This document shows, in pieces, positions 3,091 through 20,000 of a stretch of DNA of 20,000 nucleotides. The stretch comes from an uncultured virus (IMG/VR IMGVR_UViG_3300025844_000016) (Duplodnaviria > Heunggongvirae > Uroviricota > Caudoviricetes). The notes under the pieces were generated by a model, which was not told the origin of the DNA, did no database searches, and saw nothing but the letters and a program-made list of their open reading frames with translations. The position numbers were made by a program, and so were the translations under genes. The stretch lies in the IMG/VR virus record IMGVR_UViG_3300025844_000016. One strand, 5' to 3'. Within the stretch, counting starts at the first letter, position 1. Each line of letters begins with the position of its first letter.

Positions 3091-3114
3091 TGTGTTTACC
3101 TTAATGCTGGAGAT

Positions 3115-4302: not shown

Positions 4303-4345
4303 GCGTTATGTCAAACTGTCTGTGATGTCAAGTGAAAATGGCGGT
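4303..4345 (-). promoter_or_regulatory. Sigma70-type promoter with upstream ACCGCCATT box
   Basis: Minus strand reads ACCGCCATT-ttcac-TTGACA-N17-TAACGC. Confidence 0.75.
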
Positions 4346-4692: not shown

Positions 4693-4880
4693 AGGAAATA
4701 CTCCAGAAGAAAGATGATCAGGCCCACCACAGCCGCAACGAACAGTGCGACAAGTTTACTGGGCGTGCTACGAGAACAATCCGGATAATCGGACCACCCA
4801 TGTGGATTGGTAAGGCTCAGATTATACAGAAGATACAAGGCAAGCCCTGCGACGACGATAACGATGGCAGGTTCGGTCAT
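4689..4880 (-). CDS. Small membrane protein with two predicted TM helices
   Basis: Hydrophobic stretches AIVIVVAGLALYLLY and LVALFVAAVVGLIIFLL; ATGA overlap. Confidence 0.7.
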   Translation of the reverse strand: MTEPAIVIVVAGLALYLLYNLSLTNPHGWSDYPDCSRSTPSKLVALFVAAVVGLIIFLLEYFL

Positions 4881-5356
4881 TGTGTTTCCTTAATGTTACT
4901 TTCGCTGTAGCTATGACGTTCTCTGAACGGACGTTCGTAACTTCCTCGGATCACAACATAGTCTCCGGGGATATACCCATTGCATTTATACCGGCTACGG
5001 GGTTCAGGATTATTTGAACCCAAAGCGATATGTCTTTTCCCTATCAGTTTATCAATAGGAAAGCACCATAGATGAGTTCCGACTACCCATAGTTCATCGA
5101 TCTCATCAGGAGTGTATCCATTAAGATGAGATTTAGTTAGAAGTGGGCATCTCTCGTAAGCAAAGTGACCATCACCAAACTTAGACCACTGCGCTGTCTT
5201 TACCTGCACACGCACAGCCTTACCTTCTTTAATGTATACGAGGTCGGCTCGGGACTGGGATGCGATTGACATATGGACATCAAAACCTTTAGCTGCCAGA
5301 TGGGAGGCAACTAAAAGTTCTGATGCTAATCCTAAAGCGGCTGTATCACGAAGCAT
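4877..5356 (-). CDS. PD-(D/E)XK endonuclease, putative free-standing homing endonuclease
   Basis: GLASE...ADLV...RVQVKT motif typical of the I-Ssp6803I-like PD-(D/E)XK family; AT-rich (24/60 GC at 5041-5100); ATG at 5356 overlaps the polA stop (TAATG), so the ORF-track start at 5386 is probably too long. Confidence 0.75.
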   Translation of the reverse strand: MLRDTAALGLASELLVASHLAAKGFDVHMSIASQSRADLVYIKEGKAVRVQVKTAQWSKFGDGHFAYERCPLLTKSHLNGYTPDEIDELWVVGTHLWCFPIDKLIGKRHIALGSNNPEPRSRYKCNGYIPGDYVVIRGSYERPFRERHSYSESNIKETQ

Positions 5357-7671
5357 TAGTGTGTCTCGTGCCAAGCATAACCACACGAAGCTGACGCGTC
5401 AACTGGAAGAGCAAAGTTAAGGTAATTACCAGCTTCTAATGCAGCCTTGACACAGACTTCCATGACTTTTTCTTCAAGACCTTCTCTACAAGCAATTTGA
5501 ATCTCATCGTGGACCCAAGCGCAGAATACGAAATCTTTGTCCCAACCATATTCAAGACCTTCTTCATATAGCATATCTTCCACAAAGATCAGCCACCAGT
5601 TGGCGATCGTGGCACCCATGCCTTGCAGGTCGGTGTTGAGAGCCGCGTGCTTGGAGCGCACGAACAGACGACGGCCATCCAGACCTTCGAGGAACTTACG
5701 TCCGGCTTGACGCTGGATGTCACGGATCACCTTGTTCAGGGCCGGCAAGTTCTTGAGGAACTTCTGCTTGAGTTCCTTACCAATCTTTGCCTGTTGAACT
5801 GGGCTTGAAAGAGGAGAAATAATCTTACCAATCTTCTCGTCGCCCGCCCCATAGAGGAAGGCGTAGATAAAGGTCTTGGCCGTGTCACGCATATCCAGCC
5901 CGGCGAGGCGCTGGTTTTCAGAGTGGATGTCACCTTCGAGCAGAACCTGCCCGTAAGCACCACCGTCATACTTCGCCATTTCATGTGCGAGGCAGCGAAG
6001 CTCGATACCAGCCAAGTCAGACCCGACAAGCTTGAAGCCTTCATAGACCGTAAACAGCGAGCGGCACTCGTAGCCCCAGCCGCCCTTGAGCCCGAGAATG
6101 ATGACTTCGACGATCAGATCGCCATCATCATCACGCTTGAAGAACGGCTCGCCATTTTCATCAACGGACTGAGCAAGCTCCTGCCAGTTATCGCAGCGCC
6201 GTCCCTTGTGCATCACAAGCACCGGACCACCCTTGAAGATGGCATTCGGGCGGATGATACCGGTCGGCTTGGTGATCGGCTTGAGCGCAGTGATCTTGGG
6301 CTTTTTCTTGCGGACGGCCGGGACCTGTGCAAGGTTCGGGAATGCGTGCGTCGCACGGGTGGTGACCGCGCCGCATGGGTTGACGTAGGCGTGGATGCAC
6401 CCGGTGGTAGGATTGTAGACCTTGAGCCACGCCTGCTTGCCGTCAGCCAACTGGCCCATCAGCTTGCGGATCGCGAGCAGATCGGCAAGGTCTTCGGCGA
6501 CCGGGAACTTCTCGACGATCCGGCGAAGGATCACGTCGTTCGCTTTGACGTTACCCTTCTCGGTATAGTCCTCATCCTCAGGCTCCCAACCAAGCTCTTG
6601 CAGTCGGTCGGTAATCTGGGGGCGTGATGTCGGCTTGAACTCCTGCCAGATGATCGGCGTGAAGTGTGCCCCGGCGCTGTAACGAGCGCGGAGCGGGTCC
6701 TTGAAGTTCAGTGCATCCTTTGGTTTGGTCTCGGGGTAGCCATACCACCGGCGGTCAGGGACCAGTTCATCCATCTCGGCGCGTTGCTTGGCGATCGCTT
6801 CGCTGGCCGACAGATTGGAATCGAACTTGATCTCAGCGGTTCCCCAGAAGTCAGGGAACTCGCCGCCGTTGACGTTCCGGCCGATCGGTGCTGTGTCCAT
6901 CCGCTTCTTCGGGATGAAACGACCGGGGAAGGAGATCGCGAGCTTGGCTTCGAGATTGGCTTGCTCGACCGTGAGTTCTCCGGCCAGCATCTTGGCGCGT
7001 GGTGCGTCGAATGGGAATCCGTTCTCCTGCTGCCGGGCCATGAGATCACCGAGACGGTGCTGCACATAGACAGCATCAGGGGAAGCCTCGCGGCTCTCGA
7101 TCATCTTGACCAGAAGGCAGGTGACCTCTACGTCATTGACGCAGTATTCTTCCAGTTCTTCGGTCCACGTCCCCCAGACCCAGAGACGCATTTCCTCGGA
7201 GTCCTTGAGGTAACCCCGTTCGAGACCGATCGCTTCTTTGATCGCCTTGTAGTCGCCCTTATACATGCCGAGACGTTGGCCCCAGCTATCGAGCGTGTGC
7301 TTGCCGATCAGCTTACCTTCGAGCTTGCCGCCTTCGAACAGACGGAAGTCCTTGTCCTTCTGGTCGGGGAACATCAGACGAGCGAGGATCAGCGTGTCGC
7401 GGATACGTGCTTGCGGCTGGTATCCGAAGAGGATTTCCAGCATGGGAATGTCGTAGGCCACGATGTTGTGGCCCCAGATTTCCTCAGCGTCGTCGAGCAG
7501 CGCGAACAGCTTGTGGATCGTGTCCTCGCGCTTGTTCTTGCGGAACACCCACCGCTGGCCGGTGTCATAATCTCGGACCGCGACGCAATGGCAGACCGTG
7601 ACTTGCTCAAGCAGGCCATCGGTTTCCGCGTCGAATACGAGACGACGATATTTTTTCGGCTTGAGCTTCAA
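5356..7671 (-). CDS. polA: Family A DNA polymerase (T7 gp5-like) with 3'-5' exonuclease domain
   Basis: Exonuclease motifs FDAETDG, GHNIVAYD and YCVND; motif A SDLAGIELR; motif B RDTAKTFIYAFLYG; motif C WVHDE. Confidence 0.97.
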   Translation of the reverse strand: MKLKPKKYRRLVFDAETDGLLEQVTVCHCVAVRDYDTGQRWVFRKNKREDTIHKLFALLDDAEEIWGHNIVAYDIPMLEILFGYQPQARIRDTLILARLMFPDQKDKDFRLFEGGKLEGKLIGKHTLDSWGQRLGMYKGDYKAIKEAIGLERGYLKDSEEMRLWVWGTWTEELEEYCVNDVEVTCLLVKMIESREASPDAVYVQHRLGDLMARQQENGFPFDAPRAKMLAGELTVEQANLEAKLAISFPGRFIPKKRMDTAPIGRNVNGGEFPDFWGTAEIKFDSNLSASEAIAKQRAEMDELVPDRRWYGYPETKPKDALNFKDPLRARYSAGAHFTPIIWQEFKPTSRPQITDRLQELGWEPEDEDYTEKGNVKANDVILRRIVEKFPVAEDLADLLAIRKLMGQLADGKQAWLKVYNPTTGCIHAYVNPCGAVTTRATHAFPNLAQVPAVRKKKPKITALKPITKPTGIIRPNAIFKGGPVLVMHKGRRCDNWQELAQSVDENGEPFFKRDDDGDLIVEVIILGLKGGWGYECRSLFTVYEGFKLVGSDLAGIELRCLAHEMAKYDGGAYGQVLLEGDIHSENQRLAGLDMRDTAKTFIYAFLYGAGDEKIGKIISPLSSPVQQAKIGKELKQKFLKNLPALNKVIRDIQRQAGRKFLEGLDGRRLFVRSKHAALNTDLQGMGATIANWWLIFVEDMLYEEGLEYGWDKDFVFCAWVHDEIQIACREGLEEKVMEVCVKAALEAGNYLNFALPVDASASCGYAWHETH

Positions 7672-7697
7672 GGGGACTACCTATCGGAGGAAGGTTT

Positions 7698-7740
7698 TGT
7701 TAACCACAAAACGCCGTCACTGTCAATTCAAAATGTCGGT
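7698..7740 (-). promoter_or_regulatory. polA promoter with upstream ACCGACATT box
   Basis: Minus strand reads ACCGACATT-ttgaa-TTGACA-N17-TTAACA. Confidence 0.75.
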
Positions 7741-7894
7741 CACGGACAGCAGCGAGGCGATCCGCCGCAGACATTTGCGTAGTGACCAAACTCGAAGTCC
7801 TCGGGTTCTTCCGGCCATTCGGTTGCCTTATCGCAGACGTTGCAGCAGAAGAACAGGATACCATTGTCCTCCCACAATCCGTCTGGGAGTTCAT
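7700..7894 (-). CDS. Possible small hypothetical protein (64 aa)
   Basis: TGATG coupling to the upstream ORF, but its 3' end overlaps the polA promoter and the composition is unconvincing. Confidence 0.3.
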   Translation of the reverse strand: MNSQTDCGRTMVSCSSAATSAIRQPNGRKNPRTSSLVTTQMSAADRLAAVRDRHFELTVTAFCG

Positions 7895-8034
7895 CAGGCG
7901 TAGAGGTCTGGGTCATCATCGTTTCCGTTCATAGCAGACAAGATAATGAAAGCACAGACGATGATGCTCACCCAGAGCAAGGCGTCCGTGATCTTTTCAA
8001 TGAGTTCAAATGTCGAGGGCAAGTTGGCCTCCAT
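7894..8034 (-). CDS. Small single-pass membrane protein (46 aa)
   Basis: MEANLPSTFELIEKITDALLWVSIIVCAFIILSAMNGNDDDPDLYA; start reassigned to the ATG at 8034. Confidence 0.55.
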   Translation of the reverse strand: MEANLPSTFELIEKITDALLWVSIIVCAFIILSAMNGNDDDPDLYA

Positions 8035-8545
8035 CAGTAAAGTCGTGTTCTTCTTCGTCCACCGGATCATCGTATTTGATGTAGCCGGCATTGATCGACA
8101 TATTGCGGCCGATCTCCTCGAAGAAGCCGTGGTAGCCGTAATCGTGGCAAACGACTTGACCGTTAAGCATTCCGAAATTGGCGTAGTGGATGTCGTGGAG
8201 AACCGACGGGATGACACCGCCTCTTGTCCGCATCAGGGCTGCCTTGAAGTCCTTGTCGCACTTGAAGGGCTCTGTCCGTCTCTGGGTTAAGACATTCCCG
8301 TAGGGATCGATGTCTACGCAAGGTGCGAACCAGTCAGAGATCGGCCATTCCTTCATCTCCTGCCAGACCAGCCATTCGGTCTGGTTGTGGAATGTCCGGG
8401 CGGTGGTCTCGACTTTCATCACAAGCGTCGGGTCATGGATAACCTCGTAGACTTCACGAGATGCCCCAGCGCCAATGCATTTTCCCAAGAACATTGTGAG
8501 GATGGAGTTCTTGAGCGGGTCCACGTAATTCCAAGGATTGCTCAT
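8006..8545 (-). CDS. Minimal protein-kinase-fold protein (Ser/Thr kinase-like)
   Basis: Gly-rich loop IGAGASREVY, VMK lysine, NQTE glutamate, catalytic HDIHYAN, DFG-equivalent DYG. Confidence 0.75.
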   Translation of the reverse strand: MSNPWNYVDPLKNSILTMFLGKCIGAGASREVYEVIHDPTLVMKVETTARTFHNQTEWLVWQEMKEWPISDWFAPCVDIDPYGNVLTQRRTEPFKCDKDFKAALMRTRGGVIPSVLHDIHYANFGMLNGQVVCHDYGYHGFFEEIGRNMSINAGYIKYDDPVDEEEHDFTDGGQLALDI

Positions 8546-8637
8546 CGGTCTCTTGGTTCCTCCATGACATCCATAAGCATCTCATCGATCTCGACGATGC
8601 TGGACAATCCGTTGTCCATCTGGATGGCGATAATCAT
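8542..8637 (-). CDS. Small acidic protein (31 aa), not in the ORF track
   Basis: MIIAIQMDNGLSSIVEIDEMLMDVMEEPRDR; ATGA overlaps at both ends. Confidence 0.6.
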   Translation of the reverse strand: MIIAIQMDNGLSSIVEIDEMLMDVMEEPRDR

Positions 8638-10268
8638 GCGTGGAACCTTCCCTTGTTGAGCGTGATGATCGTCCGCTTGCCGTTTTGATACGTGATGATG
8701 TGGCTGTGCGACCACGACGAAGGGCCCTTGTTGTAACCCATGTCGAGGCTACCAGAGACGCCACCAACGTAGGCACCATCGCGGATGGCCGGGCTGTGGG
8801 TGTGGCCGGTATTCGACTTACGGCCTGATCGGCTGATCGCCAGCGGCGAACCCCGCGACCCGTTTGGTCCAAGGTGGCCGTGCATACCGCATTCGATGTC
8901 GCCGCAGATGATGAAAGACTGATCTTCGTTGCAGAACACAACGTCCTCAGGTGTTCCCATCTCCCGCATGACTTGCTGGAACACGTCCGGCGAACTGTTC
9001 CCGGCCTGCATCTCCATGTAGAGCCACTTCTGGCAACTCAGGAAGAACAAGGCGTTCTCAGGATCATCACGATAGTCGGCCGTCTTGAGCCACTTGAGAA
9101 GGGCTTGGTCGTGGTTGGATTCCACAATCACTGACGTGCAGTCATCCCGATGAATTTGCTTGATGAACTCAGCGCAGCCATTCAAAGCCAACTGGACATT
9201 GTTGTTCTGTCCGCCGCGAGTGTGGGCAGCAAACCGGAAGTGGTGGTCCTTGATGTTGTGGTGGTTGCGCGGCGAGAAGTCGCTGAGGTCGTGGAAGAAC
9301 TCATACTTCGGCCGCAGCCGGTGGATCAGCGGCAGCGGGCGCGGATCGTGTGGGTCTCGGAAATTGTCGATGTCCCAAGCTTCCTGCGACGGGACATGGT
9401 ATCCCCACGTCAGCATGGCGACTTCGTGATCCAGCTTTTCGTGGTGAATGTCACCATAGCTGATCGCTTCGACGCGGTGATTGGTCGTCACACCTTGGCT
9501 GGTGACATAGCGATCGAGATCGTAGAACGAGCCATTCTCAAGATCGGTGGTCAGCAGGTGCCGGCAGTAGGTAGCACCGTCCGGAGTCATCTCGACCAGC
9601 ACGGCACCAATCTGGTGGTGGAAGGTGGCCTTGATACCGGCCTTCTTGCGGACGTAGTTCGGTAGCGTGACCGAACCCGTGGTCATCAACTGCTTGGCAC
9701 GCTCGTGCTTCATCGTCGCCACCGATTCCAACTGGACCTTCGGGTGCGGGAAGACGCCCCAGCGAGCGCGGGTGTAGGTGGCGAAACCAGACAGTGGGGT
9801 AACAGCCGTCGGTAGCGTGTTCATCTCGCCGCAGAAATCCACTTCGTCGCCCAGCCGCACGCGGTCATGAACGATGAAGTCATCCACAGACGGGTGGAAG
9901 CCGACTTTGGATGAACGGGTGTCGTGATCCTCGAACAGCTTCTTGCTGTAGGTGAACCCTGAAACGATGATCTCACATTCGCCCAGCCAGTGGGCGTAGA
10001 CATTTAGCGCGTTCCAGAAGTCCTCGTGGATGTCCGAACTGTCTTGAGCCGAAGTCAGGATGAAATAGCGAGTGTGATCCAGCGGTTCGTAAACCGTCGG
10101 CCGGAGCGGACGGTTCGATGAGAACACGAACTCGATCTGTTCACCGAGGTCTTCCTGCACTGCAATGTTTCGCTTCATGCGATAACGCAGTGTGGACTCG
10201 GCGATGTTGAGGGCGCGGGCAGCCGGGCGGATACCGCCGTGCTGGGCGACCAGTTCAAGATATTCCAT
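8634..10268 (-). CDS. HTH plus calcineurin-like metallophosphoesterase/nuclease, T5 A1-like protein
   Basis: N-terminal HTH (GGIRPAARALNIAESTLRYRM); motifs GDIH, SNHD, HGH, GHTH. Size and C-terminus resemble T5 A1 homologues (from recall). Confidence 0.75.
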   Translation of the reverse strand: MEYLELVAQHGGIRPAARALNIAESTLRYRMKRNIAVQEDLGEQIEFVFSSNRPLRPTVYEPLDHTRYFILTSAQDSSDIHEDFWNALNVYAHWLGECEIIVSGFTYSKKLFEDHDTRSSKVGFHPSVDDFIVHDRVRLGDEVDFCGEMNTLPTAVTPLSGFATYTRARWGVFPHPKVQLESVATMKHERAKQLMTTGSVTLPNYVRKKAGIKATFHHQIGAVLVEMTPDGATYCRHLLTTDLENGSFYDLDRYVTSQGVTTNHRVEAISYGDIHHEKLDHEVAMLTWGYHVPSQEAWDIDNFRDPHDPRPLPLIHRLRPKYEFFHDLSDFSPRNHHNIKDHHFRFAAHTRGGQNNNVQLALNGCAEFIKQIHRDDCTSVIVESNHDQALLKWLKTADYRDDPENALFFLSCQKWLYMEMQAGNSSPDVFQQVMREMGTPEDVVFCNEDQSFIICGDIECGMHGHLGPNGSRGSPLAISRSGRKSNTGHTHSPAIRDGAYVGGVSGSLDMGYNKGPSSWSHSHIITYQNGKRTIITLNKGRFHA

Positions 10269-10274
10269 GGGACC

Positions 10275-11015
10275 TCAGTTCAGAACGAGCGGGCCGGACT
10301 TCGGCTGGCCGGGCTTGGGTGCAAAATCGGGATGGGAGTAAGCGATGCCGGCAGCACCGGCCTTGTGACGCCAGTCCCAGACGAACCACGAATAGTTGTG
10401 GCGCGGCGATCCGGTGGAGCCAGCAACCCAGCGCGGGCGCTTGGAGACCACGATTTTCTTGTGGAAGGGTGGGAGACCGAACAGTGGCATACGCCCCTTC
10501 GAGCAGTCGTATTCGTTCCGCAGGAACATCGCGACTTGACCCTTGACCGGCTGCATGAGCTTGAGGGCGTGCTTGATGAACTCTTCCGGGAGATCACCGG
10601 CGTAGGGTGGATTGGAAACGATCGCCTTGATCGAGGGATCAGGCAGCTTGTCCATCTTGAGGAAGTCACCGATCGTGAAGCGATCTTCGTAACCATAATC
10701 GATGATGTCGCTCGACCAGACAGTGTGGCCGAAGTCCGTCAGACGCTGCGAGATGTCACCCTTGCCGGCCGCGCATTCCCAAACGTTGGGATGGATGTTG
10801 ACGTGCTGGAGAAGGCAGTCCACGTTCTCCGGCGGCGTGCAGTAATGATCTGCTTCGATCCGCTCGTATCCGGAGTCGCCAAGCATGGCGGCGTCCTTCT
10901 TCTCCAGCGCCTTGCGTCGGATCATTTCCTCGGCGATCGCGAGAGGAACGCCCATTCCCATTGCGATCTCCTCAGCGGTTCCTTCGCGCCAGTTCAGTTC
11001 AGGTAGCGATGTCAT
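10275..11015 (-). CDS. DNA amino-methyltransferase (probably N6-adenine)
   Basis: SAM-binding motif I WECAAGKG followed by catalytic motif IV SNPPY. Confidence 0.85.
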   Translation of the reverse strand: MTSLPELNWREGTAEEIAMGMGVPLAIAEEMIRRKALEKKDAAMLGDSGYERIEADHYCTPPENVDCLLQHVNIHPNVWECAAGKGDISQRLTDFGHTVWSSDIIDYGYEDRFTIGDFLKMDKLPDPSIKAIVSNPPYAGDLPEEFIKHALKLMQPVKGQVAMFLRNEYDCSKGRMPLFGLPPFHKKIVVSKRPRWVAGSTGSPRHNYSWFVWDWRHKAGAAGIAYSHPDFAPKPGQPKSGPLVLN

Positions 11016-11016
11016 G

Positions 11017-11544
11017 TTATTCCTCGGAACTCAGCGTGGTCATCATGACACCCGCTTCTTGAAAAATGGCGCGTGTCGCGGCGAGGCTGGTTCCCCACCG
11101 TTCAAGCTGTTCTGGTGTGGGCTCAGGGCTCACAACGCGGGTGATCCCAGCCTGCACGACGAAGACGGCGCACCGGTCACAGGGAGTGAACGTGCAGTAG
11201 AGAGTGCAGCCATCCACCGGCCCATGGGCATTGAGAATGGCGTTCATTTCCGCGTGAACGATGCGGCTGTATTTGGTCTCCCGATCCTCATAGAGAGACG
11301 GGTGATCTGACATGCCACGGGGGAAGCCGTTATAGCCGACGCTGATGACCGTGTTGTTGGGCCGGACGATCACAGCCCCCACCTTGGTGGAAGGGTCCTT
11401 GCTGGCTGTGGCGATGTATTGTGCCATGCCGAGATAGAACTGATCCCACTTGTCGATGCGGTAGGCTCGGCGCATGATCTCGTCTTCGTAATCGAAGCGA
11501 GGGTCTACATCGCTCCGGCCGATCGGTGGGGGACAGCAGTTCAC
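11017..11544 (-). CDS. dCMP deaminase
   Basis: SKDPSTKVGA, GYNGFP, HAEMNA and PCDRC zinc-binding motifs. Confidence 0.93.
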   Translation of the reverse strand: MNCCPPPIGRSDVDPRFDYEDEIMRRAYRIDKWDQFYLGMAQYIATASKDPSTKVGAVIVRPNNTVISVGYNGFPRGMSDHPSLYEDRETKYSRIVHAEMNAILNAHGPVDGCTLYCTFTPCDRCAVFVVQAGITRVVSPEPTPEQLERWGTSLAATRAIFQEAGVMMTTLSSEE

Positions 11545-11795
11545 TTGGCGGCCTTGTTGGCGATGTCCAGCTTCACTTCGGGCGGCAAGCCGTCCATCAC
11601 CGCCTTGACCATGCGGTCCACCTTCTGTTCCAGCAGCCGGATTCCGGGAGTAGGGACACGCGACTTGTCCGCTTCCTCGTAAACCTTAACGATCGCATCG
11701 GACAGCATGGTGAGGTCGTCAGTGCGGGAGATGTCGGCGTCGATGATCGCGCCCTCGGGGAGAATGGGCGATGCGAGGCGGATATGGATGTTCAC
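11541..11795 (-). CDS. Hypothetical protein (84 aa)
   Basis: GTG start at 11795 overlaps the stop of the HD gene (GTGA); the ORF-track start at 11903 overlaps that gene too far. Confidence 0.65.
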   Translation of the reverse strand: MNIHIRLASPILPEGAIIDADISRTDDLTMLSDAIVKVYEEADKSRVPTPGIRLLEQKVDRMVKAVMDGLPPEVKLDIANKAAK

Positions 11796-12559
11796 AGGAG
11801 AAATCCTCTCTTGGTGTATTCCAAAGGCTCGTAGTTGCCTTCGGTTTCGATGATGGTCTGGTAGCGGCGAATGAAGCGGTCCTTGGCTTCCTTGGCCGAC
11901 CAAACACGGAACTCTGGAACCACGTTGTGGATCGAGATTCGGGGGTGGTCTTGCTCGTTGGTGTATGGCACCACCGGTGGCCCCATGAGTTCGTCCCGTT
12001 CAAGAAACACCATCATATTGTCCACACGGCGGACGCATTCCCGGATCGCTTGATCCACCGGGCAACGGAGTTCTTCGATGATATGCTCCATCAGGGCATC
12101 TTCGCCGTCCTTGTATCCGTTGACCGAATACTTGACCGGGCGAACCAGATCAGCGAACCCATACCCTTCTGGCGCGTCATGGATCAGGCCGTATAGAGCC
12201 GGTGAACCGGACAGTGACCAATCCCACTTGGGGACCAGTTTCTTGCGGTTCAGGGCGCAAATGTCAGCGACGTGAACCGAGTGCTGGGCAACCGAGTAGC
12301 GGACAGGATCACCGTAGCGATCGGCAGTCTGGCCGCCCCAGCGGGGCATCACAGCCAACGTATGAGCGATCGTCTCGATGTCGATCTCGTTGCCCGGATG
12401 CTTCGGCTGGAGCGGCCAGAAGTAGCGCCCCTTGTAGATTTGGATCGCCCCTTCGAGGCTCGATACCTTGGCTACTGCCCGGTTGCGATTGATCCGGGCT
12501 TGCCACTGGCTGTCAGAGAGACACACAGAAGGCTTCGCCTGTGTCGGGTGGTTGAGCAT
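11792..12559 (-). CDS. HD-domain phosphohydrolase (YfbR/YfdR-like 5'-deoxynucleotidase)
   Basis: IAHTLA...RWGG...YSVAQHS...LIHDAPE...VD motifs. Confidence 0.85.
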   Translation of the reverse strand: MLNHPTQAKPSVCLSDSQWQARINRNRAVAKVSSLEGAIQIYKGRYFWPLQPKHPGNEIDIETIAHTLAVMPRWGGQTADRYGDPVRYSVAQHSVHVADICALNRKKLVPKWDWSLSGSPALYGLIHDAPEGYGFADLVRPVKYSVNGYKDGEDALMEHIIEELRCPVDQAIRECVRRVDNMMVFLERDELMGPPVVPYTNEQDHPRISIHNVVPEFRVWSAKEAKDRFIRRYQTIIETEGNYEPLEYTKRGFLL

Positions 12560-12588
12560 GTGGGGTTTTCCTTGGTCGGGATGGACAC

Positions 12589-12631
12589 TGTTAAGCAGAA
12601 ATGCCGGTCAGTGTCAAGCGATAATGTCGGT
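12589..12631 (-). promoter_or_regulatory. Sigma70-type promoter with ACCGACATT box and a second copy in the spacer
   Basis: Minus strand reads ACCGACATT-atcgc-TTGACA-ctgACCGGCATTtctgc-TTAACA. Confidence 0.75.
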
Positions 12632-12638
12632 GCCTGCC

Positions 12639-12962
12639 TCAGTAACCCGGAGCCGGGGTGTGCAGAAGACCGTCCACATAAAGACGCGGCGTCTCGACAT
12701 CGACCGACAGAACAGCGAACGAATTGTCGAGAGCAGAGGACGACATTGCGCACGGAGTCACGTTGTCTGTGATGTAGGTGATCTTGGCGATCGCCGCTCG
12801 GCCGGTGTATTGACCAGTCCGGGAATCGAACTCACGCAGCAGCATCCGATCGCCGATGGCATAATCCCGATCGCGCTTGTCCCGCATGTCGTGCTTCTTG
12901 CGTCCCACGATCATCTCTTCGAAGAACCACGGCCACGACTTCACTTCGTAATCATATTCCAT
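12639..12962 (-). CDS. DUF3850 / ASCH (PUA-like) domain protein
   Basis: EVKSWPWFFEEMIVGRKKHDMR...DRDYAIGDRMLLREF...YTGR...ITYI; SD GAGGAAGG precedes the ATG at 12962. Confidence 0.8.
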   Translation of the reverse strand: MEYDYEVKSWPWFFEEMIVGRKKHDMRDKRDRDYAIGDRMLLREFDSRTGQYTGRAAIAKITYITDNVTPCAMSSSALDNSFAVLSVDVETPRLYVDGLLHTPAPGY

Positions 12963-12976
12963 ATCAGTTTCCTTCC

Positions 12977-13150
12977 TCATTCATAATCTGCAATGATCTT
13001 GGCGACTTCATCCTCATCGTAGAGGACTTCGCACTCGCAATCACATTCCGGACAGAACCCAAGGTCCATCGGCATGGGACGGGTCGGGTGTTCGTTCAAC
13101 TCGGTCACTGGACCAATCCAGCCGCATTGACCACATTCAGTGAACCACAT
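12977..13150 (-). CDS. Small zinc-ribbon protein (57 aa), not in the ORF track
   Basis: MWFTECGQCGWIG...GFCPECDCECEV...; two CxxC motifs; fills the gap between the helicase and ASCH genes. Confidence 0.75.
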   Translation of the reverse strand: MWFTECGQCGWIGPVTELNEHPTRPMPMDLGFCPECDCECEVLYDEDEVAKIIADYE

Positions 13151-13153
13151 AGG

Positions 13154-14962
13154 TCATCTTCCCATCTTCATTGTTGGTTCGATACCATCCACACCTTCTT
13201 GGATCATCGAAATACGATCCACCAGTGTCTGGATGGTCAAGGCGTCGATGGTGCCATCAACGACCAAGAAGTGAATCAGCACGTTGTGTTCAAGGCCGAT
13301 CCGGTGGGCCCGGTCTTCGCACTGTTCCATGTCGCCGGGAACCGACCACATCTCCACGAACACGACGACGGTGGCTTCCGTCAGAGTGTGGCCGACGCCG
13401 CCGGCCTTGAGGTTGCACAAGATGACATTGCATTCTGGATCGGGAGCGATCCGGGCATCCTTGTCACCTTGGAATCGCAGCTTCTCAGCTTCGACTTTCT
13501 TGGCACCCATCCCACCAACGATCCGGGCGGCCGTGGGGAACTTAGCGTGAAGTTCCGAGATCACGTCCTTGTGGATCGCGAAAACGATTACCTTCTCACC
13601 GGCGTCTACGAGCCGCTGGATGTGTTCGGCCGCCATCGGCACCTTGGACAGCGCGAGATCACGGCGTGCCTCTGAGTAGGCCGCAAAGCCCGGTGCAAGC
13701 TCCCCTACGTCAAGGTCGTCGATCTCCGGCGCATCGAAGCCTTGAGGCAGGATGGTCGCCATTGTGTCGAGGATAAGAGCCGGGTCCACTTCTTCGAGGA
13801 CCAGCTTCTTGTTGTATTCGATCCCGGTGTTGGCCGCGTCGAGCATGGCGAGCGCGTCGGTGAACTTGTCACGCTCGGTCTTGATGGTCTTCTTCAAGCC
13901 CTCAGGCGGAAAGACGATCACCTGTCTCGTCTTGCTGGGTAGGTCTTTCAGCACGTTGCTCTTGAGGCGGCGAATCATGAACGCCCGGCGAAGCTTCTCG
14001 TTGAGTTCGGACAGGTTCGAACCACCGGTGGCTTGTAAGCCGAACGGAGACATCACACCATCGCAATACGTCATGGCGAAGTCTTCCCAGCACTTCCCCA
14101 GACCCTCAGGATCGAAGTCGCGGATCATCGTCCACATATCCTTCGGCTGCTTCATCATCGGAGTCCCGGTGAGCATCAGCCGAATGTTCGCTGGTAGGCA
14201 GGGAAGCTTCCGGGTGCTACCCACCCGTTGTTTCATCCGCTCATATTTACGCTTCCACTTCTCTGTCCTCGGGTCGAAGAACCAAGTCCCAAAGATGGCC
14301 TGAGTTCTCTTGGAGTTCCCATTGGACAGATACTGGGCTTCATCACAAACCAAGATGTCCCAATGTTCTGCCCACAACTTCTCCCGGTTCTTGTGGAGAA
14401 TGTCGTAGTTGATGATGACGAAATCGGTATCCGGAACATCAGAGCCGGCGGCGACGCCCACGGTGAGGTCCTTGTCCACCAACCACTTCAACATCTCCTT
14501 GAGCCAGTTCAGCTTCAAGGTCGAGGGACATACGATAATCCCATTGGTGAGCCCGAGATGGTTGATCAGGCCGATCGCTTGGATCGTCTTACCAAGCCCC
14601 GGACTATCCCCAATCAGGGTGTCATCACGCTCAGCGGCATAGAGGATACCAGCCTTCTGGTAAGGTAAATAATCCAGCACCTCCCCTTTGTGATTGACCA
14701 GATGCGGCCGGGCAATGTCCGCTTCGGCGAACATGGAATAGGAGGCGTTCATCGCCTCTTCCAGTTCGGTCAGCTTAGCATCAAGATCATTCCACAACTC
14801 GTCGGAGTCAGACCATTCGATATACTCGGCCGCTTTACGCCAGTCCGTTGTGGTGTAGAACCTGTTGCGCCGATCGAATATCCAACCGGCATCACGAAGC
14901 TCGGCCCAACGAGACTCGCGGGACGTGATGATGTAGCGGTCGTGGGATTGTGAAAGCTCCAC
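13154..14962 (-). CDS. SNF2-family (SMARCAL1/HARP-like) helicase
   Basis: Q motif LPYQ, Walker A GDSPGLGKT, DEAQ, LTGTP, IRRLK, AGGVG, QCEDRAHRIG. Confidence 0.92.
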   Translation of the reverse strand: MELSQSHDRYIITSRESRWAELRDAGWIFDRRNRFYTTTDWRKAAEYIEWSDSDELWNDLDAKLTELEEAMNASYSMFAEADIARPHLVNHKGEVLDYLPYQKAGILYAAERDDTLIGDSPGLGKTIQAIGLINHLGLTNGIIVCPSTLKLNWLKEMLKWLVDKDLTVGVAAGSDVPDTDFVIINYDILHKNREKLWAEHWDILVCDEAQYLSNGNSKRTQAIFGTWFFDPRTEKWKRKYERMKQRVGSTRKLPCLPANIRLMLTGTPMMKQPKDMWTMIRDFDPEGLGKCWEDFAMTYCDGVMSPFGLQATGGSNLSELNEKLRRAFMIRRLKSNVLKDLPSKTRQVIVFPPEGLKKTIKTERDKFTDALAMLDAANTGIEYNKKLVLEEVDPALILDTMATILPQGFDAPEIDDLDVGELAPGFAAYSEARRDLALSKVPMAAEHIQRLVDAGEKVIVFAIHKDVISELHAKFPTAARIVGGMGAKKVEAEKLRFQGDKDARIAPDPECNVILCNLKAGGVGHTLTEATVVVFVEMWSVPGDMEQCEDRAHRIGLEHNVLIHFLVVDGTIDALTIQTLVDRISMIQEGVDGIEPTMKMGR

Positions 14963-14965
14963 GAC

Positions 14966-15130
14966 TTAACCAGCGATACGGAAACGATGCTCTTCGATCC
15001 CGTCTTCCCAACAGGTGCTGATGCCGACGCATTCTGGCATGATCATCGCATATATGCGATCAACCAACGCTACTGCCGCCGGGTTGTCTGGATCGTGTTG
15101 GAGCGTGATGGTGTGGTGTGCCTCACTCAC
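14966..15130 (-). CDS. Small hypothetical protein (54 aa), not in the ORF track
   Basis: GTG start overlapping the upstream stop; MSEAHHTITLQHDPDNPAAVALVDRIYAMIMPECVGISTCWEDGIEEHRFRIAG. Confidence 0.6.
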   Translation of the reverse strand: MSEAHHTITLQHDPDNPAAVALVDRIYAMIMPECVGISTCWEDGIEEHRFRIAG

Positions 15131-15621
15131 GTAACCAGCCCATCGTAAAAAGCGAACACCGCATTCAGGTCGATGTCGAGGTCGATCACTTCCACATTTT
15201 CTTCATCGACATAGCGCTTGGTCATCAGAAAATGACCCAAGTTGCTCGTGATGTGACGGGTATCGGAAACGCTCAGAGCGCCGGCGTCGGCCAGCATCTC
15301 CAAAATCATCAACAGCAGGGTTGTCTTCCCGCTCATCTGATTTGCTGCGATAGCGATCGAGATACCAGCTTTCTGTTGCTGCTGGATGTTCTTTCGCTGT
15401 GCCTCGGTCGGGAAGGGACTGGCGTGCGGCGGGAAGTCCTTTGCCTTGTTGGCGTCGGTCATCTCTTCTTCGATGATAGCGAAGCGGTTTTCGAGAGATG
15501 CTTCCAGCATCGCTTTATGGCGAGCCGCATAGCGCTGGGCCCAGAGGTCGTCACGCATCTTGTTTACCAGCGCGTGGCAGTAGTCTTCGATGTCCTGATC
15601 GGTGAAAGCGGCGATGTCCAT
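15127..15621 (-). CDS. Hypothetical protein with a degenerate P-loop-like motif
   Basis: AGGAGA SD; IAIAANQMSGKTTLL; first gene after the leftward promoter. Confidence 0.75.
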   Translation of the reverse strand: MDIAAFTDQDIEDYCHALVNKMRDDLWAQRYAARHKAMLEASLENRFAIIEEEMTDANKAKDFPPHASPFPTEAQRKNIQQQQKAGISIAIAANQMSGKTTLLLMILEMLADAGALSVSDTRHITSNLGHFLMTKRYVDEENVEVIDLDIDLNAVFAFYDGLVT

Positions 15622-16564: not shown

Positions 16565-17191
16565 ATGGCTATCAAGCGTGCCAAGACCTTCGATGAGAAG
16601 CAGTTCTATCGGCTGCTTACTCACATCGAAACCCACAGCGTCATGCCCAAGCGTGACAAGCTGATTGTGGCTCTGTCATTCAAGGCCGGGCTGCGTGTCG
16701 GTGAGATCGCCAAGATCAAGATCAGCGCGATGACCGATGTCGATGGCGCTATCGCCAAGCAGATCAACATCTTTTCCGATGTTGGTAAGAAGCAGCGGAT
16801 GCGTGACATCCCGATGAACCCCCTGATCAGAACCTGTCTGGAAGAGTTCCGCGAGGAATATCCCAACGCCAAGTTCGTTGCGATTTCTTCGCAGCCCTTC
16901 CGTTGGATTCTGGCACGGGGCCGGCCGATCCCGAAAGATGCTGAGTTCAAGCAGATGTCCCCGGAAGCCTTGAAGACTTACTATCTCAAGATGCTCAAGT
17001 CGTTCGGGTTCGAAGGCGCTTCCACTCACTCGGGTCGCCGAACTTTTGGAACCCAGCTTGCCCGAACAGCTAACGCTCACCACTGCTCACTTCGTGACGT
17101 TCAGCGGTTGATGGGTCACGCTCGGATGGAAACTACCGAAGCGTATATCGAACTCACCGAAGATGCATCTGCGATGGTGATGGCACTCTAA
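16565..17191 (+). CDS. Tyrosine recombinase, catalytic domain only (208 aa)
   Basis: GLRVGE (R), GKK (K), HSGR (H-x-x-R), MGH, TEAY (Y); SD AAGGAG. Confidence 0.92.
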   Translation: MAIKRAKTFDEKQFYRLLTHIETHSVMPKRDKLIVALSFKAGLRVGEIAKIKISAMTDVDGAIAKQINIFSDVGKKQRMRDIPMNPLIRTCLEEFREEYPNAKFVAISSQPFRWILARGRPIPKDAEFKQMSPEALKTYYLKMLKSFGFEGASTHSGRRTFGTQLARTANAHHCSLRDVQRLMGHARMETTEAYIELTEDASAMVMAL

Positions 17192-17877: not shown

Positions 17878-17919
17878 ATAGTGAGAGCCAAATAATTTTC
17901 ACTGACTGTCATTTTTATG

Positions 17920-17948
17920 TTGACACTGACAGTGAGAATCGGTAATTC
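17920..17948 (+). promoter_or_regulatory. Promoter for the first ncRNA
   Basis: TTGACA-N17 (contains AGAATCG)-TAATTC, with no credible ORF downstream. Confidence 0.7.
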
Positions 17949-17955
17949 GGCCCTC

Positions 17956-18186
17956 CAACGTCTGCTCCATGGTTTTCCGAGGGGCAGGAACAGCCGGAGT
18001 CACTCTGACCCCGCAGCGTCGAACTTGGGCGCGAGCGAGTCATTGGCCGGTCTGGTGCGGATACGTTTCGTGTCAAGGGCGGGTAGAACGGGGGAAGCCC
18101 CGAGATCACCGGCCCCCAGCACGATAGGCCAAGCCAGCGCAAGTGGTCCTGTCACGCGGTAAGTCATGGAATATCTCGACGAGTTG
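17956..18186 (+). ncRNA. Unassigned structured RNA A (about 230 nt)
   Basis: Own promoter; nested pairings CAACGTC/GACGAGTTG, TCCATGG/TCATGGA, GGCAGGA/TCCTGTC, TTGGCC/GGCCAA, CGGGG-gaag-CCCCG, GATACG-ttt-CGTGTC. Confidence 0.6.
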
Positions 18187-18199
18187 ATTTGATTAAGTG

Positions 18200-18228
18200 T
18201 TGACACGAATCGAATCACCTAATAGAGA
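18200..18228 (+). promoter_or_regulatory. Promoter for the GOLLD-like RNA and downstream ncRNA cluster
   Basis: TTGACA-cgaatcgaatcacctaa-TAGAGA, with two GANTC sites in the spacer. Confidence 0.7.
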
Positions 18229-18231
18229 GAC

Positions 18232-18793
18232 GGAATGCCAGCCTGATGGCGATAGTGTGAGGCAACTCACATAAAGGGGGTAAGGCCACTTAACCCCGCC
18301 GGTCCCGATCGGTCAATTCAGGCAAGCGCAGTCAGGTCCGCGAGGACCGCTTCACCGGGATAACCTTGCAAACTTAGCATAGTTGGTAATGCAAACGACT
18401 CTTAATCGTGAGATCGGTGGTTCAAACCCACCAGTCTGCTCCAAACGCAAAGATTGCCACGACTGCATGTGAAAGACGCCTAATGCCATAGAGGCTTGCC
18501 TCAATGTGGCCCGACCTGATCTCGCAAGGTGATGGTTGGTTGGTGGAAGAAGTTTCGTTGGGCCCGCAAGCCCTTAATGGCTGGAGACAGTCAGCGGAAT
18601 CGAAACTGCCGAATATCATGCAGTGTCACCGCAAATGCCAGCGGTCCCGTGAGAACCGGGAGAAAAAGGCGGCGTTGGTCTGGAACTGAGCTACCGCAAG
18701 GGGCTTGGTGGATAAGTCGGGAAGGTGACTCGCAAGGTCACTATAATCTGACGAATGACGGATCGTAGCGGGTGTAATCTCAACCTGCTTCCA
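18232..18793 (+). ncRNA. GOLLD-like RNA (compact, about 560 nt) with embedded tRNA
   Basis: Many CGCAAG/GCAA-capped hairpins; ordered motifs TGAAAG...CTA, GTGGATAAG, ATAAT and a terminal hairpin with loop GTAATCTCA match my recollection of the GOLLD 3' domain; embedded tRNA and phage tRNA-cluster context are typical of GOLLD. Not checked with a covariance model. Confidence 0.7.
18368..18443 (+). tRNA. tRNA-Lys(CTT) with encoded CCA
   Basis: Acceptor GCAAACT/AGTCTGC (one A-C mismatch), D arm GCAT-agttggta-ATGC, anticodon arm ACGA-ctCTTaa-TCGT, T arm GGTGG-ttcaaac-CCACC, then T-CCA; 76 nt. Confidence 0.9.
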
Positions 18794-18797
18794 TTTT

Positions 18798-18980
18798 TCG
18801 ATTTCTATGTTGGCCCAGCAAAGAAGGTTAGCTACCTTCCCCTCGGTTCCCGCAGGTCAGGTCGATCCCAGCAATTCTCGAATGCAGACGGATCGTCGAA
18901 GCATCAGGTCCAGTAATTCGAGCCGTGGCTTGATCGCATTGGGCGTCGCTGCAAACCCGCTGGGTCATCATAGAAAACGA
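18798..18980 (+). ncRNA. Unassigned structured RNA B (about 180 nt)
   Basis: Terminal helix TCG-a-TTTCTATG-t-TGGCCCAGC / GCTGGGTCA-t-CATAGAAA-a-CGA; inner helices GAAGG/CCTTC, GGTCAGGTC/GGCTTGATC, CTCGAAT/ATTCGAG. Confidence 0.65.
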
Positions 18981-18982
18981 TA

Positions 18983-19151
18983 GCCCGGAGTAACCGCCAC
19001 AACAGATTGGTAGCTTCCATGGAAAGTTGTCGGGAGTTGGTCAGGGATGTTTAGGTGAAGTCGCCTTCGAAAGCGGCGCGGTGGATCGGAAAGCAGGGTT
19101 GATCTCCTGTGGAACGATAGGCCAGTGGTTCGACTCCACCTCCGGGCTCCA
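18983..19151 (+). ncRNA. tRNA-like RNA C (169 nt): acceptor stem, T arm and CCA around a large non-tRNA body
   Basis: GCCCGGAG/CTCCGGGC 8-bp stem, GTGG-TTCGACT-CCAC T arm, T discriminator plus CCA; no canonical D or anticodon arm. Confidence 0.7.
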
Positions 19152-19158
19152 TAACGCT

Positions 19159-19298
19159 TCACTCGTAATGAAGCTTCTCAGCGGAATGTCGGCGGTCACG
19201 CGACCTAACCGGCGATCCGTGGGTTTACACTGAACCGGCGGAAGGAAGGGCGTAGTGAACCCGGCCGAGCTTCGAGAGGCCCCATTACGAGTGATCCA
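19159..19298 (+). ncRNA. Unassigned structured RNA D (about 140 nt)
   Basis: Perfect 12-bp TCACTCGTAATG/CATTACGAGTGA followed by T-CCA; inner GCTTCTC/GAGAGGC and GGGTTTAC/GTGAACCC. Confidence 0.65.
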
Positions 19299-19427
19299 TT
19301 TGTGATCGGGCCGGCGGCACCAGATAGGTTTAAGGCGAGTGGACTCCCGTCGAACGGAGACGACAGACCCGGATAAAAACCGTGTATGGGTGTTGCTAGT
19401 GCTTTGGCCGCCGGCCTGATCACAGAT
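19298..19427 (+). ncRNA. Unassigned structured RNA E (about 130 nt)
   Basis: 21-bp terminal helix ATTTGTGATCGGGCCGGCGGC / GCCGCCGGCCTGATCACAGAT, with two G-U pairs. Confidence 0.65.
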
Positions 19428-19430
19428 GTT

Positions 19431-19516
19431 TCACTTGCAACAAGGGAGGCGGGCACCGTCGGGAAACCGGGACGGATGATTCGCGAACTTTAGTCCGCTC
19501 TCCTTGTTGCGAGTGA
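19431..19516 (+). ncRNA. Unassigned structured RNA F (86 nt)
   Basis: About 24-bp terminal helix TCACTTGCAACAAGGGAGGCGGGC / GTCCGCTCTCCTTGTTGCGAGTGA (G-U pairs, one mismatch); apical CCGTC-GG-gaaa-CC-gg-GACGG. Confidence 0.65.
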
Positions 19517-19530
19517 TGTTCGAGTTTTTC

Positions 19531-19691
19531 TCACTTCCCTGTCCGCAGGGGTGACCCGGTAGGTAACCAAGGGTGGTTCGAATATCCTCGCATTTAGTTC
19601 CTGTGGGTTCCATGGAGCCCCTTGAATCCTCAAGCAGGTGACAGAGAGTTAAAGGAGCCGCCCTGCTCCGAAACCAGATAAAATGGGTGAG
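19531..19691 (+). ncRNA. Possible structured RNA G (multi-hairpin; boundaries uncertain)
   Basis: Hairpins CCCTG-tccg-CAGGG, GGGTG-gttcgaa-TATCC, GGGTTC-catg-GAGCCC, CTTGA-atcc-TCAAG, GGAGC-cgccct-GCTCC; closing CTCGCATTT/AAATGGGTGAG. Confidence 0.5.
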
Positions 19692-19704
19692 TGCAATTTT
19701 TTAG

Positions 19705-19733
19705 TTGACATTCGAATCGGATGTCGTTACACT
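19705..19733 (+). promoter_or_regulatory. Promoter of the leader-peptide / tRNA unit
   Basis: TTGACA-ttcgaatcggatgtcgt-TACACT; CGAATCG in the spacer. Confidence 0.8.
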
Positions 19734-19785
19734 TCGATCATCAAGACCGGGATGTTCCGGCCAAACAGGATTTCAGAGTTCAACC

Positions 19786-19875
19786 ATGTTCAACGTAGTC
19801 GCCATGAATAACCCAGCAGCACCGGCCATTATGGTCCCGGTCGCGATGGCGTGCGAACAGATGGTTGGTGGCTAG
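19786..19875 (+). CDS. Putative leader peptide (29 aa, MFNVVAMNNPAAPAIMVPVAMACEQMVGG)
   Basis: Short ORF between a promoter and a terminator hairpin; SD is weak. Confidence 0.5.
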   Translation: MFNVVAMNNPAAPAIMVPVAMACEQMVGG

Positions 19876-19904
19876 GCCACTTCACTCTCCAAGCAGTTAT
19901 CTCG

Positions 19905-19941
19905 ATCGGGGGCCATGGCAACATGGCCCCCGATTTCGTTT
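19905..19941 (+). terminator. Terminator/attenuator hairpin immediately upstream of tRNA-Pro
   Basis: Perfect 13-bp ATCGGGGGCCATG-gcaa-CATGGCCCCCGAT followed by TTCGTTT. Confidence 0.7.
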
Positions 19942-20000
19942 CAGGGTCTAGCTCAGTTGGAAGAGCGTCCGGTTTGGGACCGGAAGGCCGTAGGTTCGAG
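19942..20000 (+). tRNA. tRNA-Pro(TGG), truncated by the window edge
   Basis: CAGGGTC-TA-GCTC-agttggaa-GAGC-g-TCCGG-ttTGGga-CCGGA-aggcc-GTAGG-TTCGAG... Confidence 0.92.

Follow-up and report, generated by a model that had tools for sequence, protein, structure and literature searches.

A conserved, oversized tRNA-like RNA gene downstream of a GOLLD RNA in an uncultured virus of the Caudoviricetes

What kind of RNA is encoded by a phage sequence that begins and ends like a transfer RNA (tRNA) and encloses a far larger body? This question is raised by an element of 169 nucleotides (nt), at positions 18983-19151 on the plus strand of a 20,000-nucleotide stretch of the uncultured virus IMGVR_UViG_3300025844_000016 (hereafter, the window, that is, the whole stretch analyzed, G000:C1:7317-27316 of a 39-kb record that CheckV rates as 23% complete). 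The analysis described here indicates that the element is a real, conserved, and probably expressed phage RNA gene, and that it is a well-delimited, new variant of an old, unexplained kind of phage tRNA-like RNA. As to its role, we consider it probable, although far from assured, that the gene, present in a single copy, specifies an oversized, stable phage RNA that does not decode, is built on a tRNA frame, and displays a conserved loop to a partner.

The tRNA frame and its covarying fold

The tRNA-like ends that the initial annotation described are all present by direct reading. The 5' strand of the acceptor stem, GCCCGGAG (8 nt, 18983-18990), forms eight Watson-Crick pairs with CTCCGGGC (19140-19147); the T arm (19125-19139) consists of a 4-base-pair (bp) stem, GTGG (19125-19128)/CCAC (19136-19139), and the loop TTCGACT, and the RNA ends with a U discriminator (19148) and an encoded CCA (19149-19151). 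The 12-bp acceptor/T helix splits 8/4 because a fifth T-stem pair is impossible, A19124 being opposite C19140, and the position of the variable loop (19119-19124) holds the 6 nt AGGCCA. When the whole window was scanned on both strands for oversized structures of this type (95-400 nt, a split 12-bp helix, a TTCRANN loop, and NCCA), the single match was this element, and a comparable structure arose in 1 of 300 dinucleotide shuffles of the window. No open reading frame (ORF) of at least 80 amino acids overlaps 18983-19151. The assignment of the whole gene draws on the direct reading and this chance scan, as well as on the homologues and the RNA-library contig described below.

Four distinct homologues were found by search routes independent of the fold and, together with the window, make up a subfamily of five sequences. 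In a blastn comparison of the element with the nearest cultured relatives of the virus record, the Erythrobacter phages XM05 and vB_EliS-L02 (L02 below; ~150 kb each), the flanks alone matched; the XM05 homologue (L002:3633-3781) was reached through these flanks and spotted by eye and by pattern. Two homologues on uncultured contigs (L126:6093-6238 and L127:6405-6550) were reached via a neighboring protein, and one more, also on an uncultured contig (L323:209-356), by a pattern scan of metagenomes. The unchanged window sequence is found in three viral contigs (four stored loci) and at one metagenome locus.

With the five sequences set in register, four helices are kept throughout, namely, the acceptor stem (8 bp), a D-like stem (4 bp), the inner stem of a long arm (4 bp), and the T stem (4 bp). 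Standard pairs occupy 99 of the 100 helix cells, compared with 49-52 when the 3' partner is slid by 1-2 places, and variation affects 14 of the 20 pairs, with both bases changed in 12 of these; the covariation that had been proposed as a check of the element is thus present. All eight acceptor pairs are intact in all five sequences, with seven of the eight varying, and the T stem and the D-like stem are each paired in 20 of 20 cells. In the D-like stem, both bases differ in two of the four pairs (CGCC/GGTG in the window, CGTC/GACG in L323, CGCC/GGCG in XM05, and CACC/GGTG in L126 and L127). The helix splits 8/4 in the window, L323, and XM05, and allows either 8/4 or 7/5 in L126 and L127; TCCA ends all five sequences.

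The homologues also revise the view of the body, which had been taken for a foreign insertion replacing the D and anticodon arms. Because they show a D-like stem accompanied by a GG motif, and an arm with an invariant loop at the position of the anticodon arm, the cloverleaf topology is best described as kept and enlarged. The D-like stem pairs CGCC (18995-18998) with GGTG (19054-19057), both strands supported by covariation and the pairing also present in the minimum free energy (MFE) fold. It closes an insert of 55 nt at the D-loop position (18999-19053), which consists of a long irregular hairpin (in the RNAalifold consensus, CAAC 19000-19003 with GTTG 19036-19039 and an apical CATG at 19018-19021) followed by the conserved motif AGGGATGTTTA (19043-19053), which contains GG, as the D loop does at G18-G19. 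The length of this insert hardly varies among the five sequences (55, 55, 55, 53, and 53 nt). The long arm (19085-19118) is composed of an outer stem, ATCG (19085-19088)/CGAT (19115-19118), which is GATG/CATC in L323, an internal loop of 5+5 nt, an inner stem, CAGG (19094-19097)/CCTG (19106-19109), that covaries, and an 8-nt loop, GTTGATCT (19098-19105). The first seven letters of this loop, GTTGATCN in the family consensus, where N is never C, are identical in all five sequences.

The internal helices listed in the initial annotation fared unevenly against this fold. CAGG/CCTG is strongly supported by covariation. The CGCC/GGCG helix (19062-19065/19075-19078) closes an extra hairpin, CGCC-TTCGAAAGC-GGCG (19062-19078), between the D-like stem and the long arm; this hairpin is lineage-specific, with a small one at the same place in XM05 and none in L323, L126, or L127. 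For the ACAAC/GTTGT helix, the partner of CAAC (19000-19003) favored by the homologues is GTTG at 19036-19039 rather than the one at 19026-19030. TGGTC/GGCCA is in register in two of the five sequences, the window and L323, and is not kept in register in the others; as an extended pairing between the D loop and the variable loop it was rejected, being off by one in XM05 and clashing with the outer stem of the long arm in L126 and L127. The variable stretch before the T arm ranges from 5 to 18 nt among the five sequences.

A family of RNAs with a common loop

The loop of the long arm extends well beyond this subfamily. We define the family of GUUGAUCN-loop tRNA-like RNAs by a G-C-closed hairpin with the loop GTTGATCN, followed by a T arm, a 12-bp acceptor/T helix, and NCCA, with no tRNA call. 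The complete exact-pattern scan of IMG/VR (GGTTGATC, a gap, a T arm, and NCCA) yielded a total of 53 loci, many of which are ordinary tRNAs with GGTTGATC in the D region; another pattern scan produced mostly tRNAs of the same sort among the matches listed, and the loose pattern TTAGGTGA...GGTTGATC left three filtered candidates among the matches listed, of which a single one was genuine and matched the window exactly. The strict pattern is found at 14 of the 53 viral loci and at 24 metagenome loci, and, in 185,579 prokaryote species represented by one genome each, at a single locus, L302.

All loci gathered were filtered for a loop hairpin with 3 bp or more and for pairing of the acceptor strand, which left 29 distinct sequences, a few of them still ordinary tRNAs or mis-bounded. 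Twenty-five, the window included, were aligned; L018 and L080 (ordinary tRNAs or mis-bounded) and L177 (a truncated duplicate of L126) were dropped, as were L068 and L171, both of which ARAGORN reads as intron-bearing tRNAs. Among these 25 sequences, 93.3% of the 225 cells of the loop hairpin and T stem are paired, a share to which selection contributed, as discussed below, compared with 66.3% in shuffles, none of the 500 attaining the observed share, and 39-55% with slid partners. The third pair from the loop is CG in eight sequences, AU in six, GC in six, UA in three, GU in one, and unpaired in one, a variety of pair types that is not a product of selection. The first seven loop letters are common to all 25 sequences, as the search pattern demanded.

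Around this hairpin, the frame is variable. Members are 94-178 nt long, apart from L314, which is mis-bounded at 221 nt and has a tRNA-like part of ~77 nt according to a relaxed ARAGORN call. The acceptor and T stems nevertheless add up to 12 bp in all members, as 8/4, 7/5, or 6/6, the discriminator can be U, G, A, or C, and in most members a GG-containing stretch like AGGGATGTT precedes the loop arm. Many lie in or adjoin phage tRNA arrays. The cultured carriers include Erythrobacter phage XM05, Cronobacter phages CR9 and CR3, Pectobacterium phage PcCB7V, Klebsiella phage KaOmega, Pantoea phages AAM37 and PSKM, and Xanthomonas phage DIBBI; the feature tables of CR9 and AAM37 annotate no RNA gene at the site of the element. 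The signature occurs once per record in G000 (the record of the window), G001 (complete, 176 kb), G002, XM05, CR9, and AAM37, and a scan found it absent from the genomes of L02, T4, and T5.

Two sets of relatives resemble ordinary tRNAs in size or in the D arm. L302 (L302:372-450, on a contig of a Prevotella metagenome-assembled genome) is a tRNA-sized relative of 79 nt with the same 8-nt loop on a 6-bp stem, which ARAGORN reads as a tRNA of undetermined type with the four-base anticodon 'tgat'. The metagenome loci L315 and L317 (135 nt) have a canonical-looking D arm and an acceptor, GCCCGAG...CTCGGGC-T-CCA, that is nearly the one in the window, with ~66 nt including a GTTGATC hairpin in place of the anticodon loop; this structure is a hint at an origin of the family in true tRNAs whose anticodon arm became longer.

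Among neighboring proteins, those shared across lineages amount to spurious frames over tRNA genes and one hypothetical protein in two jumbo-phage contigs. We found no description of the GUUGAUCN-loop family in the literature. A catalogue of ~8,500 RNA candidates from IMG/VR may contain it; in six supplementary files of that catalogue, none of five contig numbers appears, and the motif may still be listed there (PMC10690425).

Standing among tRNAs and other tRNA-like RNAs

Does the element qualify as a tRNA of an unusual kind? It shares with canonical tRNAs the 12-bp acceptor/T helix, a TTCRA-type loop, the discriminator followed by CCA, and a D stem with GG. The canonical anticodon arm, with its 5-bp stem, 7-nt loop, U33, and purine 37, is replaced by 4+4 bp interrupted by an internal loop of 5+5 nt and capped by the 8-nt loop, where a pyrimidine lies 3' of any readable triplet in GTTGATCT. 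As expected for a tRNA mimic, ARAGORN at default thresholds makes no call on the element, also with introns and transfer-messenger RNA (tmRNA) allowed, and Rfam gives no match on 18983-19151 at E<=10, including to RF00005, tRNA-Sec, the tmRNA families, and RF02553. An intron-bearing tRNA, for which the initial annotation had judged the element too short in the case of a group I intron, can be dismissed, given that no exon pair rebuilds an anticodon arm and that ARAGORN with introns is silent at default thresholds in all five subfamily sequences; under relaxed settings, ARAGORN assigns these five conflicting types (His, undetermined, Ser, and Arg, with no call in one). We conclude that the RNA cannot serve as a normal decoder, because the outer stem, internal loop, and inner stem place its loop at too great a distance from the acceptor end, because that loop does not have the 7 nt of an anticodon loop, because a pyrimidine follows any readable triplet, and because the same loop is combined with different acceptor stems. 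Anticodon-independent charging requires G3-U70, G-1, or a long variable arm, and by these identity rules the RNA, in which all three are missing, is probably not charged.

These observations bear directly on the possibility that the element is a working translation adaptor, either a tRNA with an 8-nt anticodon loop capable of four-base or Ile-type reading, or a tRNA gene from which an insert is removed. The tRNA-sized relatives speak for such a role, with 'tgat' called in L302 and relaxed Ile(gat) calls for some members, and there are published precedents: an 8-nt anticodon loop is functional in yeast mitochondrial tRNA-Thr (PMC7609411), and oversized tRNAs of Lak megaphages were evaluated as intron-bearing (bioRxiv 10.1101/356790). 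However, the loop in the window sits on a much longer arm, and 55 extra nt occupy the D loop; the pyrimidine next to any readable triplet is unfavorable for reading; the loop stays the same while acceptor stems and discriminators (U, G, A, and C) differ; ARAGORN is silent on the subfamily even with introns, and its relaxed calls conflict; and, G3-U70 being absent, as are G-1 and a long variable arm, anticodon-independent charging would not be expected by the identity rules. Taken together, we regard an adaptor function as very unlikely.

The nearest known kind is that of the stable tRNA-like RNAs of phage tRNA clusters, T4 rnaC and T5 RNA1/rna2, and the precedent of stable non-tRNA RNAs in the T4 tRNA cluster, invoked in the initial annotation, is borne out by the T4 records. 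Like the element, these RNAs are oversized (139 nt for T4 species 1 RNA, rnaC; 144 nt for T5 RNA1; 125 nt for rna2), lie in or beside the phage tRNA cluster, and combine an acceptor-like closing helix beside a T arm and a TTCRA-type loop with no usable anticodon arm. They have long been known and, to our knowledge, have no known function. Nevertheless, no sequence relation to the element was found: GTTGATC is in neither phage's RNAs, the T4 and T5 genomes lack the signature of a GTTGATC hairpin and T arm, and T4 rnaC and T5 rna2, as annotated, have no CCA end. Only the element has the clean 8/4 helix with U-CCA, the D-like stem with a 55-nt insert, and the invariant 8-nt loop.

In tmRNA, the acceptor stem, T arm, and CCA similarly close a large non-tRNA middle, and there is a D-loop-like stretch; the element, however, is less than half the usual length of tmRNA. 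The earlier conclusion that it is not a tmRNA holds, with C3-G70 in place of G3-U70, U73 rather than A as the discriminator, no tag frame, and no ARAGORN or Rfam call. Y RNAs carry their tRNA-like module internally, and their two ends make up a Ro-binding stem. YrlA and other Y RNAs resemble the element as non-coding tRNA mimics (Rfam RF02553), whereas the ends of the element form an acceptor stem with CCA, it does not match RF02553, and none of five related records has a Ro (TROVE) gene.

Allo-tRNAs, which are ~90 nt in size, share the 8/4 split, for which 9/3 is the alternative in this and the tRNA-Sec-like group. The element differs from them in being 169 nt long, with a 6-nt variable position, no 7-nt anticodon loop, and a mostly phage distribution. 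According to a review, allo-tRNAs and irregular 8/4 tRNA-like polycistrons (Mukai et al. 2017) occur in soil metatranscriptomes and metagenomes, and some of the irregular tRNA-likes have extra loops and are not chargeable by Escherichia coli synthetases; allo-tRNAs have the same 12-bp acceptor domain split 8/4 as the element but, unlike it, carry true anticodons, accept serine by virtue of a long variable arm, and are bacterial (PMC7609411). The oversized Lak megaphage tRNAs are likewise tRNA-framed phage genes that cannot be classified at standard settings; in the preprint, they were evaluated as intron-bearing, with type and anticodon assigned (bioRxiv 10.1101/356790), whereas in the element no exon pair rebuilds the anticodon arm.

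Genomic setting and possible roles

The element belongs to a train of RNA modules at one end of the window. Positions 1-15,600 hold replication genes on the minus strand (a family A DNA polymerase, an exonuclease, and a SNF2 helicase), and a small gene of the integrase family follows at 16565-17191; the possibility that the element is an attP, a copy of an integrase target, was set aside, since the acceptor stem is complete, with two strands that covary. Beyond ~17,860, the remainder of the window is free of ORFs of at least 80 amino acids except for two doubtful frames, at 17917-18162 (no Pfam match) and, on the minus strand, at 19205-19456. The conserved domain of a GOLLD RNA lies upstream of the element on the plus strand (18340-18786; Rfam RF02032, 122.1 bits, E 3e-33, the gathering score of 150 not being reached), and the GOLLD RNA of the window perhaps begins at ~17860; in L126 and L127, GOLLD scores 156.7 and 158.8 bits, above the Rfam threshold. 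Embedded in the domain is a tRNA-Lys(CUU) detected by ARAGORN (18368-18443, plus strand), which ends in U-CCA and has one mismatched acceptor pair. Downstream, tRNA detection finds a tRNA-Pro (19942-20000, plus strand), the first of a tRNA array, preceded by a promoter-like site at 19705-19733 (TTGACA, 17 nt, TACACT) that is conserved with XM05 and L02. In these two phages, a short frame that opens with ATG and a GC-rich hairpin with a run of T lie between the promoter-like site and tRNA-Pro, and the region from the site through 19941 resembles a leader or an attenuator preceding the tRNA array.

Between GOLLD and the element, no promoter-like or terminator-like sites were found and, because of this, we suppose that the element would be co-transcribed with the neighboring GOLLD RNA and RNA modules. 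Processing by the host enzymes for tRNA ends would then be expected, because the 12-bp acceptor/T helix, T loop, D-like stem with GG, and encoded CCA are all retained: cleavage by RNase P would take place immediately 5' of G18983, and trimming of the 3' end would stop at the CCA at 19151, the RNA being excised in the same way as the phage's own tRNAs, such as the tRNA-Lys that likewise ends in U-CCA. Of four RNA-library runs, one, X2, contains a contig of 159 nt in total that equals 18987-19145 with 0 differences, that is, the element minus 4 nt and 6 nt at its ends; this fits, as weak evidence, the existence of the element as a separate RNA. Runs X1, X3, and X4 have no contig on the element, and in X2 the flanks 18771-18986 and 19146-19939 have no cover, although absence of cover proves nothing in either case. 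The GOLLD domain is present as separate contigs in X1 (18199-18359 and 18390-18761), X2 (18390-18770), and X4, the last a variant in which 299 other letters replace 18360-18364.

Could such processing be the whole purpose of the element? As pure punctuation, akin to a t-element, its fold would recruit RNase P and the 3' enzymes to part GOLLD from the other modules, and the excised piece would be functionless. The gene-free train of modules with no internal promoter or terminator fits this notion, as does the module order in XM05, which differs as if the modules were independent cassettes. On the other hand, the acceptor/T helix would suffice for punctuation, yet phages whose hosts are unrelated also retain the loop, the GG motif, and the length of the insert; the X2 contig is the piece itself; and AAM37, a small phage with two annotated or predicted tRNAs beside the element and no GOLLD found, still carries one. 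The invariance of the loop and the constant length of the insert argue for more than a processing tag, and we consider punctuation alone improbable.

Several observations on the surrounding modules deserve mention in their own right. The gene-free stretches 18787-18982 and 19157-19295 are also conserved with relatives. Over 18794-19602, the window aligns to L126 at 75.5% overall, and the portion before the element is far better conserved than the element. The stretch 19157-19295 can be aligned with both XM05 (77%) and L127 (92%); in XM05, its counterpart precedes the tRNA-like element instead of following it, so that the modules appear shuffled like cassettes. Two relatives have, just after GOLLD, a minihelix that is absent from the window (L003:3390-3440 and L127:5955-6010), in which an 8-bp acceptor-like stem is joined directly to a T arm with the loop TTCAAGT; it is ~48 nt long, without a body or CCA, and is flanked by a long inverted repeat.

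The proximity of GOLLD also raises the possibility that the element is a partner or cargo of a GOLLD RNA cage, or that it associates with itself through self-complementary loop letters. The element lies ~200 nt downstream of GOLLD in four related phages, and a GOLLD cryo-electron microscopy paper proposes tRNAs as possible cargo (PMC12286853). Both apical loops hold 4-letter palindromes, GAUC in the long arm and CAUG or CUAG at the tip of the D insert, and the change from CATG to CTAG in L126 and L127 keeps the palindrome. However, phage L02 has GOLLD without the element, CR9 and AAM37 have no GOLLD within the 1.5-kb flanks searched, and 4-letter palindromes are common by chance, those seen here come from three independent lineages only, and a tetraloop is a poor kissing partner. 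There is, in our view, hardly any likelihood that either variant accounts for the element.

The reading of a single-copy, non-decoding RNA that presents its loop to a partner can be outlined as follows. The tRNA frame would supply processing and stability while displaying the two enlarged parts, the 55-nt D-loop hairpin and the long arm with the loop GUUGAUCN. This loop would be the likely working surface, binding a protein or RNA of the host or the phage, and the D insert perhaps has a working role as well. Going one step further, the GUUGAUCN-loop RNAs could form a tRNA-framed effector class, mostly in phages, in which the invariant loop on a freely varying arm engages one conserved host target, for example, a tRNA-directed defense nuclease, a synthetase, a modification enzyme, or the ribosome; we put this forward only tentatively, as a generalization that may well not hold.

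A related proposal, advanced as one of two options in the initial annotation, is that of a decoy or sponge, in which the imitation of a tRNA by the top half and the anticodon-arm-like hairpin occupies a host factor that acts on tRNA, be it an anticodon nuclease of a defense system, a modification enzyme, or a synthetase, and so protects the real tRNAs or blunts defense. Defenses that target tRNAs, and phage tRNAs, are reportedly the subject of published papers. The invariant loop on a variable frame, the mostly phage distribution, and the location near tRNA arrays suit a decoy. So does the local context, which would fit a setting of tRNA damage: an RtcB RNA ligase is encoded in four of the five Erythrobacter-type records (G000:C1:38433-39152, outside the window, W01, W02, and G001), ~10-12 kb from the tRNA array as reckoned from coordinates, and there is a weak YrlA-like match at L001:2846-2949 (~20328-20431, outside the window and ~1.2 kb downstream; 37.5 bits, with a gathering score of 69). 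Similar YrlA-like matches, at 37-38 bits, are seen at L126:7568-7671 and L127:7925-8025, inside the tRNA array. Speaking against a decoy, no target is known with a substrate loop resembling GUUGAUCN, RtcB is absent from 15 of the 16 other carriers, and the element is present in one copy per genome, with no hint of the dosage of a sponge. A decoy thus seems doubtful to us.

The reading that we favor, of a stable RNA with a loop partner, has its own weak points. RNase P cleavage, 3' trimming, and stability enter it as inferences only. The predicted fold is of unremarkable stability: the MFE is -63.7 kcal/mol (z -1.33), with 19 of 200 shuffles folding equally well, and the homology-supported fold, at -54.0 kcal/mol, is ~10 kcal/mol above it, a gap that tertiary contacts, which the model of the folding program leaves out, could bridge. 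Expression depends on a single contig in one of four runs, and contigs show neither true ends nor strand and might stem from DNA carry-over. Part of the 93.3% pairing across the family is due to selection, through the exact-pattern gathering and the filter for a hairpin of at least 3 bp. A decoding ancestry, or a decoding role of the loop, is possible for tRNA-sized relatives such as L302. Finally, the searches did not supply the partner: a Ro/TROVE gene is found in none of the five related records, nor is the CCA-adding enzyme family PF01743, and RtcB was rejected as a family-wide partner, being present in only one of the 16 other carriers and, hence, a matter of local context.

What, then, do these findings contribute? 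The family is now definable by a strict signature, consisting of the invariant 8-nt loop, the GG motif, and the 12-bp acceptor/T helix with NCCA, and its fold is fixed by compensatory changes. The single-copy, unannotated members in the cultured phages XM05, CR9, CR3, AAM37, and DIBBI allow deletion of the gene, mutation of the loop, and pull-down experiments. The element also contributes to a view of GOLLD loci as trains of RNA modules, each processed separately. Should the partner of the loop be a host factor for tRNA handling or defense, the family would represent an RNA-based counter-measure; otherwise, it would be an old puzzle that is now well described. If the GUUGAUCN-loop RNAs indeed constitute an effector class, they would act as factors of RNA counter-defense or host takeover, and would open a route to experimental tests of the stable tRNA-like RNAs in T4 and T5.

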